Origin: an uncultured Candidatus Saccharibacteria bacterium
GTDB lineage: Bacteria > Patescibacteriota > Minisyncoccia > Phycocordibacterales > UBA918
NCBI GenBank assembly: GCA_964350985.1
Contig: CAYGLK010000001.1
Coordinates: 91,018-155,017, forward strand
Reading direction: 5' to 3'
DNA length: 64,000 nt
Shown here: positions 12,688 to 59,442 of the stretch, in pieces
Position numbering within the stretch: the stretch's first letter is position 1
How the letters are laid out: every line of letters starts with the position of its first letter
Made by a program: the position numbers and the translations under genes
Notes under the pieces: generated by a model
What the model was told of the DNA's origin: nothing
The model's input: only the letters and a program-made list of their open reading frames with translations
Databases searched by the model: none

Positions 12688-12812
12688 GGGGACCTACACA
12701 AACGACACATTTCTTCGTTGTCCGGCGTAAAATATTCCTCACCGTACAATCGGTACGACTCGTCTTATTTTACTAGGACGTCTCGAACTGTATTCGCTTG
12801 TGTTGGTCTCCT
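12688..12812 (+). repeat. stem-closed conserved element L1 (contains a GTAC-core module) in the rnr/rpsP divergent region
   Basis: 5' GGGGACCTACACAAACG pairs with 3' CGCTTGTGTTGGTCTCC. Interior shares ~60 nt near-identity with 40455-40573. Confidence 0.5.
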
Positions 12813-12887
12813 AAGACACTTTCACTTTGAGTTTGGCGGTTCTACCTATTGACCAAATTTATTCTATCTGCTACTCTAGCGCCACTT

Positions 12888-13376
12888 ATGTTAATGATGC
12901 GTTTACAACGAATTGGTCGCAAAAACGACCCCTCTTACCGTTTGGTTGTCGTAGACAAGCGAACTGGTCCTAAGAGTAACAAGCACATAGATCACTTGGG
13001 TTCTTATAATCCTAAGCAAGGTCAGGTGCAGATTGATGCTGTTAAGGCAAAAGATTGGTTGAGTAAAGGAGTACAAGCTTCTGACACAGTTCACAATCTT
13101 TTAATTACTCACAAGGTTATTGAAGGTAAGAAGCGAAACGCTCTACCACGAAAGACACCTATTATTGATGAAGCTAAAGTAAAGGCAGAAGCTGAGGCAA
13201 AAGAAAAAGCTGAAGCAGACGCAAAAGCTGCTGCAGAAGCAGCTGAGGCGGCAAAGAACGCTCCAGTAGAAGAAACTCCAGCCGCTGAGGAAACTCCAGC
13301 TGAAGAGCCAAAAGCTGAAGAAGCTCCAGAAGAGACACCTGCTGAAGAGCCAAAGAAAGAAGAAGCAGCTGCTTAA
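12888..13376 (+). CDS. rpsP: 30S ribosomal protein S16 with Ala/Glu/Pro/Lys-rich C-terminal tail
   Basis: MLMMRLQRIGRKNDPSYRLVVVDKR...SYNP matches the S16 core. A ~70-aa low-complexity tail (KAEAEAKEKAEADAKAAAEAAEAAK...ETPAEEPK) follows. Confidence 0.8.
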   Translation: MLMMRLQRIGRKNDPSYRLVVVDKRTGPKSNKHIDHLGSYNPKQGQVQIDAVKAKDWLSKGVQASDTVHNLLITHKVIEGKKRNALPRKTPIIDEAKVKAEAEAKEKAEADAKAAAEAAEAAKNAPVEETPAAEETPAEEPKAEEAPEETPAEEPKKEEAAA

Positions 13377-13407
13377 GTATACAAAAGCTAAATACTAGCT
13401 TGCACCA

Positions 13408-13436
13408 AATCGGGATTTACTCCCGTTTTTTTGTTG
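13408..13436 (+). terminator. terminator after rpsP
   Basis: CGGGATTTACTCCCG followed by TTTTTTT. Confidence 0.5.
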
Positions 13437-13518
13437 ACGGTACTAATCTATTCTCGTATTATTATAAAAGCAGCACCACAAACGGAGCGTGCTTACCAGA
13501 ATACTAAAATATTGATGT

Positions 13519-13872
13519 ATGGATACCCACGAAGATAAGCAATTTCTTGAGACTTTAGTAAAATCATTGGTTGATCACCCTGAAGCTGTCAAAATTAATC
13601 GGACAGTAGATGAGATGGGAGTTTTGTTGATGTTAGATGTACACGCTGAAGATATGGGGAAGATTATCGGCCGTTCAGGTAATACAGCCAAAGCGATAAG
13701 AACTTTACTTCGAGTAGTAGGAATGAAGCATGACGCTCGAGTAAATCTAAAGATCAATGAACCAGAAGGAGGACGAGGAATGAATAGTGAAATGAGTGAA
13801 GCGATGCGAGAGGATAATTTGGCTACTGAGCCTAAATCACTCGACCAGGCCATAGAAGACCTAAAGATTTAA
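13519..13872 (+). CDS. KH-domain RNA-binding protein (YlqC/UPF0109-like)
   Basis: LVKSLVDHPEAVKINRTVDEMGVLLMLDVHAEDMGKIIGRSGNTAKAIRTLL matches a KH domain. Its position between rpsP and trmD is conserved. Confidence 0.75.
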   Translation: MDTHEDKQFLETLVKSLVDHPEAVKINRTVDEMGVLLMLDVHAEDMGKIIGRSGNTAKAIRTLLRVVGMKHDARVNLKINEPEGGRGMNSEMSEAMREDNLATEPKSLDQAIEDLKI

Positions 13873-56904: not shown

Positions 56905-56942
56905 ATAGCCCACGAGGCATTATTAGCTTTCATTCAAATTAA

Positions 56943-57848
56943 ATGGCACTCAAACAAATCAAAAACAAAATAATTTCTACCAAAAAAACTGGCAAAGTGA
57001 CTAAGGCCATGGAGTCGGTTTCAGCGGTGAAGATGCGTAAGAGTCAGGCTCGAGCTTTTGAAAGCCGACCTTATATCAGAGCCGCAATGCGTATTTTGTC
57101 TCGTTTGTCTGACACTCGCGACGTAGAGCAGCATGAATTTTCTAAGGTTAGAACTTCAACTAAAAAGTTGGTTGTAATTGTCACTAGTGACAAAGGTCTG
57201 GCTGGAAGCGTTAACAGTGCTGTTTTACGGAAGGTGGAACTAATGAAAAAAGACGGTGAGATTTTTGATGTTGTTACTATTGGACGCAAAGCCTTTGAGT
57301 TTGCTGAGCGTGAGAAGTTGGTCATCAAAGCTCACTACCTAAATGTTAGTGACGGAGTGACTTTATCTGATGTTTACGAGATGTCAGATGTAGTAATGAA
57401 AGCTTTTGCAGCTGACCTGACTTACGGAATCGTTGAAGTTGTTTACCAAAACTTTATTTCTACATTTGAACAAAACCCAACTAAGCGGCAAATCTTGCCG
57501 CTAGATCCAAAAGAAGTAAAAGAAATAATGCTAGACATCCGTCCAAAGACTGGAAAGTTTAGCGACGAAATAGTGGTTGAAGGGGCGACTTTGCAATATG
57601 AAATCGAACCAAGTGCTAGTGCTGTTTTGGACGTCTTGATTCCACAACTAGTACAGATCTTGATCTTCCACGCTCTACTTGAAAGTAAGGCGTCAGAACA
57701 CTCTTCAAGAATGGTGGCGATGAAGAACGCAACTGATAAATCTAAAGAAGTAGCCAAAGCTCTGACTTTGGTTTACAACAAAGCCAGACAAGCCGCTATT
57801 ACAGCTGAGGTAGCTGAGATAACCGGAGGTATGGAAGCTATGAAATAA
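56943..57848 (+). CDS. atpG: F0F1 ATP synthase subunit gamma
   Basis: N-terminal IKNKIISTKKTGKVTKAMESVSAVKMRK and C-terminal helix motifs. Confidence 0.9.
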   Translation: MALKQIKNKIISTKKTGKVTKAMESVSAVKMRKSQARAFESRPYIRAAMRILSRLSDTRDVEQHEFSKVRTSTKKLVVIVTSDKGLAGSVNSAVLRKVELMKKDGEIFDVVTIGRKAFEFAEREKLVIKAHYLNVSDGVTLSDVYEMSDVVMKAFAADLTYGIVEVVYQNFISTFEQNPTKRQILPLDPKEVKEIMLDIRPKTGKFSDEIVVEGATLQYEIEPSASAVLDVLIPQLVQILIFHALLESKASEHSSRMVAMKNATDKSKEVAKALTLVYNKARQAAITAEVAEITGGMEAMK

Positions 57849-57976
57849 ACTTGCGATACGACTCCATATGCTTTGTCGCTAAAATATTTTAGCCTAGGGC
57901 CTCTGGAGCCGTCTCACAAGTTTATGAGATACATTTGAAAGATTATTAAGCCAAACACAATTATTAAACAAACATT

Positions 57977-59347
57977 ATGAAAACAGGAACTATTACACAA
58001 ATCGTTGGTCCAATCGTGGACGTCCACTTCCCGGAGGGAGTACCAGCTTTATTAAATGCTCTAAAGGTAACTAAGTCTAAAGACGAGACTATTACTCTAG
58101 AAGTAGCTCAACACATCGGCTTAGACCGAGTGCGAGCTATTGCGATGCAGGACACTCAAGGTTTGGAGCGAGGGATGTCTGTAGCTGACACAGGAGCAGC
58201 AATTTCTGTACCGGTAGGTGAGCAATCACTCGGTCGTTTGTTTAACGTGCTCGGCGAGACACTAGACGGGAAAGGAGATCTTTCAAAAGCGCCTCTGCGC
58301 GGTATCCACCAAGAAGCTCCAGCTTTTGTAGAACAAGCAACAACAACTGAAGTTTTTGAAACTGGAATTAAGTCAGTTGACCTTTTGGCTCCGTTTATTA
58401 AGGGAGGGAAGGTAGGTCTTTTTGGAGGAGCGGGAGTAGGGAAGACAGTTCTTATTCAAGAGTTGATTCACAACGTAGCCTCAGAGCACGGAGGATACTC
58501 AGTGTTTGCTGGAGTAGGAGAGCGTGTACGTGAAGGAAACGACCTGTACCACGAAATGAAAGACTCAGGCGTACTTGAAAAGACAGCTCTAGTATTTGGA
58601 CAAATGAACGAAGTTCCAGGAGCGCGTGCTCGAGTAGGACTTACTGGTCTAACTATGGCTGAAGCTTTGCGAGATCAGGGAGGGAAAGACGTTCTTTTCT
58701 TTATGGACAACGTTTTCCGCTTTACTCAAGCTGGACAAGAAGTGTCTTCACTTCTAGGACGTGTTTCTTCAGCTGTAGGTTACCAACCTACACTAGCTGA
58801 AGAGATGGGTAAGATGCAGGAACGTATTACCTCTACTAAGAAGGGCTCAATTACTTCTATTCAAGCTGTATACGTACCAGCCGACGACATGACTGACCCG
58901 GCTCCAGCGACTACTTTCTCTCACCTTGACTCAACCGTAGCTCTTAGCCGACAACTAGCATCATTGGGTATTTACCCAGCGATTGACCCGCTTGAAAGTA
59001 ACTCTTCAGCTTTAGACCCAGTGATTGTTGGAGAAGAGCACTACCGTGTAGCTCAAGGAGTGAAGTTGGTACTACAACGATACAAGGATCTTCAAGACAT
59101 TATTGCTATCCTTGGTATCGAAGAATTGTCAGAAGAAGACAAACAAACAGTTTACCGAGCTCGAAAGATTCAAAAGTTTATGAGTCAGCCTTTCTCAGTA
59201 GCTGAAGTGTTTACTGGAGCTCCAGGAAAGTATGTTCCTCTAGCAGAAACAGTTCGTGGCTTTGGTGAGATTCTTGATGGGAAGCATGATGATAAGAATG
59301 AGCAAGCTTTCTACATGAAGGGCGGCATTGATGAGGTTACGAGTTAA
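57977..59347 (+). CDS. atpD: F0F1 ATP synthase subunit beta
   Basis: GGAGVGKT P-loop and DELSEED-like region (EELSEEDK). Confidence 0.95.
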
Positions 59348-59372
59348 GTAAATAGCTAATCTGTTTTGTTGC

Positions 59373-59442
59373 TACGAAAAAATTTTCTTTCACTGTACAT
59401 TTAAGTACACCTCAATAAAATTTTTTCTAGCGCCGCGCATCT
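59373..59442 (+). repeat. GTAC-core conserved intergenic element, copy C3 (between atpD and atpC)
   Basis: CGAAAAAATTTTCtttCActGTACatttaaGTACaccTCaataAAATTTTTTCtaGCGCCGCGCAT. Confidence 0.6.

Follow-up and report, generated by a model that had tools for sequence, protein, structure and literature searches.

Why should a repeat be transcribed from one strand and selected to fold on the other? This question is raised by a 64,000-nt stretch of DNA (the window, by which we mean the whole of this stretch) from an uncultured Candidatus Saccharibacteria bacterium (GenBank assembly GCA_964350985.1, contig CAYGLK010000001.1, positions 91,018 to 155,017), which carries five same-orientation copies of a hairpin-forming repeat, and the answer would be either a new mechanism of single-stranded DNA mobility or a new manner in which the 3' ends of mRNAs are shaped. 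A preliminary description had suggested that the repeat is a processing site, an attenuator or an operator tied to downstream "growth-rate" genes. Our analysis shows that it belongs to a conserved, structured repeat family that occurs throughout the candidate phyla radiation (CPR, or Patescibacteria), that it sits at the ends of the upstream genes, and that the complement of the mRNA strand is the one under selection to fold. [quoted passage not shown]

A long hairpin with a fixed-motif core at the stop codon

A covariance model (R1) was built from the five window copies and searched over the window, where these copies score 86-94 bits and the remainder at most 18 bits. One model describes all of them, which confirms the preliminary description with respect to the five same-strand copies and their membership in a single family. 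Matches at this low level come either from the reverse strands of the five copies or from ordinary terminators, and were not counted as family members. The five copies align over ~87 nt without large gaps and adopt the same interrupted hairpin fold, and the long interrupted hairpin that had been predicted is real, with compensatory changes at 16 of 28 pairs among these five copies (RNAalifold).

At the base of the core, P1 consists of UUC/GAA or UGY/GCA. It is followed by an internal loop, whose 5' side reads CUUYGUYG and whose 3' side reads CGCCUCG, and then by P2, whose 4-5 bp covary freely (GUCC/GGAC, GGAC/GUCC, GUAG/CUAC, GCUA/UAGC). Above P2, an A/U-rich P3 and a 3x3 loop (UCA opposite CUC) lead to the apical GUAC stem. 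The motifs CTTYGTYG, TCA-nn-GTAC, GTAC-nnn-CTC and CGCCTCG are fixed, and the stems between them covary. The core motif of the earlier consensus is therefore real, but the conserved block reaches further 5', where it includes CTTYGTYG. A similar correction applies to the extra terminal helix, which had been rightly recognized but assigned to two longer elements only: in all five window copies, the 87-nt core stands on an additional basal helix of 16-19 bp. This basal stem (P0), which lies outside the model, has at least nine Watson-Crick pairs in 80 of 83 copies (median 16), and its sequence is particular to the site or subfamily; the same 83 copies form the basis of the counts for placement and fold energy. 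Each copy is one long, continuous, imperfect hairpin of 123-130 nt without an open reading frame (ORF), in which a fixed-motif core is combined with covarying stems.

The covariation is very strong in an alignment of 78 further copies from related genomes, in which double changes occur at 26 of the 28 pairs and 86.4% of the cells are paired, as compared to 64.0% in shuffles and 24-51% with slid partners; this alignment was fitted to model R1, but the signal is nonetheless far above these controls. The predicted helix would be long enough for an RNase III site, which requires ~20 bp at least. Neither strand has a T run after the element, which therefore does not qualify as an intrinsic terminator. 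Separate canonical bidirectional terminators follow 16 of the 83 copies, in the order gene, element, terminator, and window copies 2 and 3 are among these.

Where does the element sit? In 66 of 83 copies, the core is preceded at a distance of 0-22 nt by the end of an open frame of at least 60 codons, whereas the mirror-image test on the opposite strand and end gives 8 of 83. At the element, TAA accounts for 49 of the stop codons, TAG for 17 and TGA for none, the background being 274:154:41, and in 49 of 65 copies at least two bases of the stop codon are paired. The element sits at a TAA or TAG stop in one fixed orientation, with the stop codon within the base of its stem, and because it is lodged there in this orientation, it is co-transcribed with the upstream gene as part of a 3' UTR or of an intercistronic RNA. 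The distance to the next start codon is loose (23-516 nt), and in 17 copies the neighboring gene is even convergent; the element is therefore tied to the end of the upstream gene and not to the start of the downstream gene. A placement directly after stop codons had already been noted and holds for copies 2-5, but not for copy 1, which lies between the divergent starts of the RNase R gene and rpsP. A role as leader, attenuator or operator of the downstream genes is not supported, as the tight constraint lies on the upstream gene. Copies 2 and 3 are followed by terminators and are therefore outside the transcript of trmD and other downstream transcripts, copy 1 lies upstream of both adjacent promoters, and the khpA site is empty in ~20 of 73 close relatives.

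It had also been assumed that the plus strand folds, but the selected folding strand is its complement. On the sense (gene) strand, the core stems contain 106 A·C versus 22 G·U cells, with other mismatches mostly of the pyrimidine-pyrimidine type, and P0 contains 114 A·C versus 22 G·U. On the complementary strand, the sense mismatches become G·U, G·A and A·A. In the antisense loops, GAG stands opposite UGA, which forms a tandem sheared G·A in YGAR context followed by a G·U, and GAGGC stands opposite AACRAA. The mean RNAfold energy is -51.7 kcal/mol for the antisense strand and -37.7 kcal/mol for the sense strand, the antisense strand being better in 81 of 83 copies (p = 3e-15) and in 35 of 36 independent copies at the khpA site. 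The asymmetry is found as well in subfamily A (see below), in non-genic copies, and in the rare copies that are inverted within an operon. The GC skew of the sense strand is -0.23 within the element and on average +0.06 in the flanks, and background composition together with the usual C-to-T bias would predict the opposite of this negative skew. In element orientation, the GC skew of the locus is positive in 67 of 82 loci, which is a weak test on 8-kb loci and confounded with gene direction. The idea that replication rather than the gene sets the orientation was rejected, and since copies in loci of negative skew keep the same folding asymmetry, this asymmetry appears to be intrinsic to the element.

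Distribution, insertion polymorphism and arrays

How widely is the family distributed? A degenerate pattern of the 5' half, for which about one chance match was expected, was searched in 185,579 species genomes and matched 60 stretches, of which ~54 are labelled as Patescibacteria (Kaiserbacteria, Paceibacteria/Parcubacteria, Nomurabacteria and "Saccharibacteria"). It is in these 60 loci that R1 found the 78 copies, including some that the pattern had missed. The upstream genes are largely highly expressed housekeeping genes, and the sites that are repeatedly filled across species are those of atpE, khpA, rpsL, lepA, rplJ, secY, rseP, tuf, rpsG, rplF, rplW, ssb and atpD. The pattern had no match in viral contigs, blastn found none in plasmid and phage records, and a search of Logan contigs gave one match only, which was an identical 5-kb contig. 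Rfam 15 gave no match at gathering score for the whole window on both strands, and with E values of up to 10 over 12650-14060 the matches fall only on the terminator, so the element has no Rfam match. As the literature search also revealed, in the papers that it covered, no repeat or structured-RNA family of this kind for the CPR, the family is apparently undescribed so far.

One 69-bit copy, located after an ssb-like C-terminus (…DIPF*), is on contig JBLHQB010000002.1 (L039), labelled Patiriisocius sp. (Bacteroidota). This contig, assigned to a metagenome-assembled genome of Flavobacteriaceae, is probably a mis-binned CPR contig and not an instance of the family beyond the CPR.

Five orthologous rnr-rpsP spacers (L118, L088, L081, L074, L063) lack copy 1. 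These spacers share motifs that are conserved across relatives and lie at 12650-12665 and 12846-12860 in the window. GCAGTATAGCAT is a minus-strand -10 of the TGnTATACT type just ahead of the RNase R ATG, which would imply a near-leaderless RNase R mRNA, and CTATTGACCAAATT is the rpsP -35 region. The two are spaced by 30-50 nt in the five orthologous loci, and the window has ~130 extra bases between them. As judged from this comparison of spacers, the presence of copy 1 between the two promoters reflects a lineage-specific insertion, and as the copy lies upstream of both, it cannot be a leader of rpsP.

The khpA site is similarly variable. We retrieved 80 metagenome loci that encode KhpA at 81-93% identity, and in the 73 assessable ones there is a model match directly after the stop in 28, a diverged copy in at least four more, a different palindromic element of ~165 nt in ~19, and an empty site with the terminator directly after the stop in ~20. 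This is also the only site at which tandem arrays were found. They consist of 3-4 heterologous units with a period of ~128 nt (L140:3340-3860, L138:3340-3730, L131:3340-3730), the composition being a-b-c-d in L140, b-c-d in L138 and e-e-a in L131. The units are 60-70% alike within an array, and the same units are 91-98% identical between genomes. They are 3-8 nt apart, and each is preceded by a sequence that resembles the 3' end of khpA including its TAA, CCTAAAGATATAA.

The different element of ~165 nt occurs directly 3' of the khpA stop at L064:3355-3510 and also, for example, in L065, L076, L097, L110, L126-L129 and L135. It has a long basal stem around two hairpins, GACCGUAAAAAUCUCAGCAGAUUUUUAC and a terminator-like stem, with CUUCGGCUUCGGC and CCUGCAGAUGCUCGCC as conserved stretches. 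Its fold has a z of -6.8, Rfam gives no match for it, and its antisense strand is somewhat more stable in 12 of 16 copies.

Nine copies come from genome JAYSUD, where subfamily A is 87-92% identical among six unrelated sites; the older copies group by orthologous site across genomes instead. In subfamily A, the core ends are CACAYTTCTTYGTTG ... GAATTGC and the basal stem is TAGGACYTNCANAAACGG ... CGTTTNTGNAAGTCCTA. Many other copies have the termini TARRAC ... GTYYTA with TA on both sides, and basal stems in the family are largely site-specific. The family is both polymorphic and modular, and it shares with MITEs the presence/absence polymorphism, the small size (<300 bp), the lack of coding capacity and the dispersed copies, of which the window contains five plus one remnant in 64 kb.

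The window copies and their surroundings

The coordinates of the window copies and of the terminators behind two of them are given in Table 1. Pfam assigns the neighboring genes to RNase R (minus strand), S16, KhpA, TrmD, class I aldolase, AtpE, AtpF, AtpD and AtpC.

Table 1. Copies of the hairpin repeat and adjoining terminators in the window (CM, covariance model score)
Feature	Position	Core	Strand	Score or basis
Copy 1 (subfamily A), full hairpin	12686..12813	12706-12791	+	CM 85.9 bits
Copy 2, hairpin after khpA	13860..13984	13879-13964	+	CM 86.7 bits
Canonical bidirectional intrinsic terminator past copy 2, ahead of trmD	13993..14037		+	20-bp stem, 11 G-C pairs, T run
Copy 3 (subfamily A), hairpin	40453..40575	40470-40556	+	CM 92.9 bits
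Canonical bidirectional terminator past copy 3	40604..40632		+	AAAAAGTCCCCGTAAGGGGACTTTTT
Copy 4, hairpin between atpE and atpF	54310..54434	54329-54415	+	CM 94 bits
Degenerate sixth copy after atpG	57846..57924		+	sequence and fold
Copy 5, hairpin between atpD and atpC	59341..59460	59357-59443	+	CM 91.1 bits

Copy 1, with the basal arms TGGGGGACCTACACAAACGA and ATTCGCTTGTGTTGGTCTCCTA, is not preceded by a stop codon, the RNase R start being at 12649 on the minus strand; over 57 nt it is 91% identical to copy 3, the other window member of subfamily A. The basal stem of copy 2 takes in the khpA stop TAA (13870-13872) together with the final 3-4 codons, CCTAAAGATTTA pairing with TAAATCTTTAGG, and in orthologous copies the changes of a Leu codon are compensated in the 3' arm. 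Copy 3 starts 2 nt past the fba stop TAG (40448-40450), it folds with -32.5 kcal/mol on the plus and -49.2 kcal/mol on the minus strand, and the terminator that had been described behind it is indeed a canonical bidirectional one. Copies 4 and 5 lie within the atp operon. In copy 4, the atpE stop TAA (54310-54312) provides the first three bases of the stem, the energies are -33.7 (plus) and -52.4 (minus) kcal/mol, and this site is filled in at least six other genomes. In copy 5, the stem contains the atpD stop TAA (59345-59347), GAGTTAAGTAAATAGC pairs with AACCATTTATTTAACTC, and an ortholog is found at L050:1177-1263. The sixth copy keeps the basal stem, P1/P2 and the GCTTTGTCG motif, with a short AT hairpin in place of the apical core, and the orthologous site in the close relative L050 (2986-3073) has an intact copy of 38 bits.

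Very regular bidirectional intrinsic terminators with an A tract, a perfect G+C-rich stem and a T tract are present directly 3' of many genes (4583-4622, 15585-15634, 22742-22778, 29136-29180 and 34219-34258). With such separate terminators in the genome, the hairpin repeat is no substitute for them. Weak model matches at 4568, 15581, 22729, 29126 and 34210 were rejected as ordinary bidirectional terminators.

Some other features of the window deserve mention in their own right. Five boxes of 29 bp, which resemble perfect palindromes of the form TTTATCTATCATCA-N-TGATAGATAAA, are located at 24884-24912, 25380-25408, 25417-25445, 25462-25490 and 43182-43210. Four of them cluster in the divergent region between the ORFs 24930-25397(-)/25503-25958(-) and 25964-27727(+), one is upstream of 43380-44603, and all five have the look of operators for a dimeric repressor. 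An exact direct repeat of 71 nt (51745-51815 and 52489-52559, 744 nt apart) contains two G+C-rich hairpins, CCTCACCTGGAGG and GGTCCGGACGCACCTACGGTGCGTCCGG; one copy lies between the Pfam-less minus-strand ORF 51853-52407 and ORF 51671-51886, and the other between ORF 51853-52407 and ORF 52557-52958, which is also Pfam-less. A 174-nt stretch over the 3' part of atpC (59586-59759) recurs with 90% identity 810 nt downstream at 60396-60569, and a 67-nt segment (60337-60403) recurs at 61043-61109, again with 90% identity, which suggests a partial duplication of atpC or a rearrangement just past the ATP synthase operon. S16 (13150-13376) has a low-complexity C-terminal extension of ~80 aa that is rich in Ala, Glu, Lys and Pro, with an internal repeat of 42 nt at 13280-13363, and KhpA extends ~35 aa beyond the 73 aa of the Pfam KH domain.

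Competing explanations and known systems

If the element is a mobile or duplicative repeat, its hairpin would serve its own propagation or maintenance machinery. Most simply, the hairpin would be single-stranded DNA that is recognized by some enzyme, by analogy with attC, REPIN and IS200-type systems. At stop codons, the survivors would be those insertions whose orientation gives the mRNA the weaker, C-rich and mismatched hairpin, and we propose that such an orientation filter exists because the terminating ribosome must melt the stem that contains the stop codon. An effect on the host would be secondary and could consist in a 3'-end barrier that stabilizes the upstream cistron (atpE, atpD, rpsL, rplJ and others). 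A host benefit of this kind, for example at the atpE or rpsL cistrons, is possible, but a primary host role is argued against by the asymmetry between the strands, by the sites that are empty, by copy 1, which is untranscribed, and by the atpG copy that lacks the apical core.

There are several points that weigh against a mobile repeat. Neither a transposase nor a recombinase nor an autonomous parent was found among the ten unassigned window ORFs that were scanned, and in the fetched loci no terminal motifs flank a longer autonomous element. The element has a conserved center and, except in subfamily A, variable termini, which is the reverse of classical MITEs, and TA on both sides as a target duplication is seen in just about half of the subfamily A copies. 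The core motifs are kept across deep CPR lineages, and the atpE-atpF, rpsL-rpsG, rplJ-rplL, secY and khpA sites are filled in many species, with compensatory changes; such deep conservation and recurrent filling suggest selection at the level of the host. Finally, as judged by GC skew, the favored folding strand is the leading-strand template in the 67 of 82 loci mentioned above, and to our knowledge this preference is opposed to the IS200/IS605 rule and fits no known model of single-strand transposition.

A more specific possibility, which we consider unlikely, is that an undescribed DNA system, structure-specific and common to the CPR, uses the element as its substrate; an enzyme would read the folded bottom strand, set the hairpin exactly at TAA or TAG stops, and assemble and shuffle the hairpin arrays. 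The features recognized on the modelled bottom strand would be the loop with the tandem sheared G·A and the GTAC stem. If this is true, it would be a third mobile system based on a folded single strand, beside integron attC and REPIN-RAYT, and it would operate in bacteria with minimal genomes.

What other explanations have to be considered? It is rather unlikely that the element is a host cis-acting RNA in the sense mRNA, that is, a stop-codon hairpin that works as a 3'-end barrier to exonucleases or as an RNase III-type site, which would transfer the earlier idea of an RNA-level cis element to the upstream gene. Such an RNA would set the relative stability of the upstream cistron (atpE over atpF, atpD over atpC, rpsL, rplJ, khpA, fba), and terminating ribosomes would melt its basal stem. 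Its placement speaks for this idea: element and upstream gene certainly share a transcript, many species have the element at the same intercistronic sites, and the upstream genes are mostly highly expressed housekeeping genes; a helix of ~28 bp or more with internal loops also has the size of an RNase III substrate, and ERIC and Correia elements have been reported to modulate mRNA stability (PMC3184786; PMC3733652). The mismatches, however, are the reverse of what selection on a sense RNA would leave, as the destabilizing A·C and pyrimidine-pyrimidine mismatches are on the sense strand and the G·U pairs on the antisense strand. Moreover, copy 1 lies outside both adjoining transcripts, the khpA site is empty in ~20 close relatives and occupied by an unrelated element in ~19, and the atpG copy has lost its apical core yet kept the stem. 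The antisense strand itself shows hallmarks of a structured RNA, with G·U five-fold over A·C, more G than C, and purine-rich loops (GAG/UGA with sheared G·A; GAGGC/AACRAA), and each copy might be the gene of a rod-like small RNA of ~125 nt, convergent to the adjacent gene and overlapping its stop codon, that triggers duplex processing of the mRNA 3' end or titrates a protein. This is nevertheless improbable: -10-like hexamers are not enriched at any fixed upstream distance on the antisense strand, a bidirectional terminator 20-75 nt upstream leaves no room for an antisense promoter in 16 copies, array units are merely 3-8 nt apart, no U tract follows the hairpin, and a mobile element could not count on finding an outside antisense promoter at every new site.

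At the level of DNA, a recombinase might insert and excise ORF-less hairpin cassettes beside stop codons and thereby yield the arrays, with the element as a folded-strand recombination site like attC. It is an imperfect palindrome of attC size that directly follows ORFs and overlaps their stops, its bottom strand folds better, and the arrays are modular, sharing units in differing combinations, such as L140 with one extra gene-proximal unit as compared to L138. But it lacks the R'' and R' consensus motifs (RYYYAAC ... GTTRRRY), the genes that it follows belong to core operons and are not cassettes, no integrase was found among the ten scanned window ORFs, and the arrays are confined to the khpA site, so that we give this explanation as little weight as the antisense RNAs. 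Hardly anything speaks for a double-stranded operator of a symmetric regulator of growth-rate genes, which the preliminary description had offered as an equal alternative to the hairpin on account of GTAC-N5-6-GTAC. The two GTAC tetramers hardly vary and are spaced by about one helical turn, but ~28 further positions show paired covariation in place of conservation, most copies are at gene 3' ends and not at promoters, and the mismatch pattern is strand-asymmetric; because the arms covary instead of staying fixed, such an operator is excluded.

Whichever mechanism applies, CPR bacteria have tiny, streamlined genomes and yet maintain tens of these 125-bp hairpins within their most highly expressed operons. 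The insertion polymorphism and the arrays make the family usable as a marker of CPR genome dynamics. For annotation, some caution is advisable, as the elements are neither leaders nor terminators and bury stop codons in their stems. With the covariance model and the alignments, the question can be directly tested on complete genomes and metatranscriptomes.

How does the element compare to known systems? T7-type RNase III hairpins and operon-internal mRNA stabilizers are likewise intercistronic hairpins with internal loops in polycistronic mRNAs, but in these, selection acts on the sense strand, and they neither move nor show polymorphism. In attC sites, such as the 123-126-bp repeats of Vibrio cholerae, structure is conserved over sequence, the site is immediately 3' of an ORF, the bottom strand is the one that folds, and the sites form arrays. 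The CPR element is also an imperfect palindrome directly 3' of an ORF with a folding bottom strand, but in place of R''/R' motifs its ends are TARRAC ... GTYYTA or site-specific, GTTG is unpaired and present in the 5' half only, and it stands beside conserved housekeeping operons (atpE, atpD, rpsL, rplJ, secY, khpA, tuf) without mobile ORFs or attI. Correia elements (NEMIS/CREE) are MITEs of 100-160 bp with TA duplication that are co-transcribed and whose hairpin RNA affects mRNA processing (PMC3184786). They differ by their conserved 26-bp terminal repeats, an IHF site and promoters, and lack a comparable stop-codon specificity or strand-asymmetric folding. REP elements and REPINs are multicopy extragenic palindromes too; REPIN hairpins are ~100 nt long with compensatory changes, and the stop codon of a flanking ORF is often contributed by a REP terminus (PMC3733652). 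REPINs are thought to move as single-stranded DNA hairpins, but the consensus of the CPR element contains no GTAG/CGTC tag, it is not composed of two REPs of 20-40 bp, and its center rather than its ends is conserved. No RAYT gene was encountered either, although no search was aimed at one.

ERIC, although of another sequence and from another host phylum, is also a non-coding imperfect palindrome with a conserved center that is located in 3'-end intergenic regions and has TA at its termini. De Gregorio et al. (2005) reportedly observed that one orientation is preferred among the ERIC copies that adjoin or overlap stop codons. With ~127 bp, ERIC is TA-flanked, co-transcribed at gene 3' ends and folds as an RNA hairpin (PMC3184786). 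Unlike ERIC, the CPR element has a site-specific basal stem that pairs with the end of the coding sequence, folds much better on the antisense strand, forms heterologous tandem arrays and has no known cognate transposase. The closest analogue is ERIC, yet the CPR element has a distinct architecture and an unexplained antisense folding bias.

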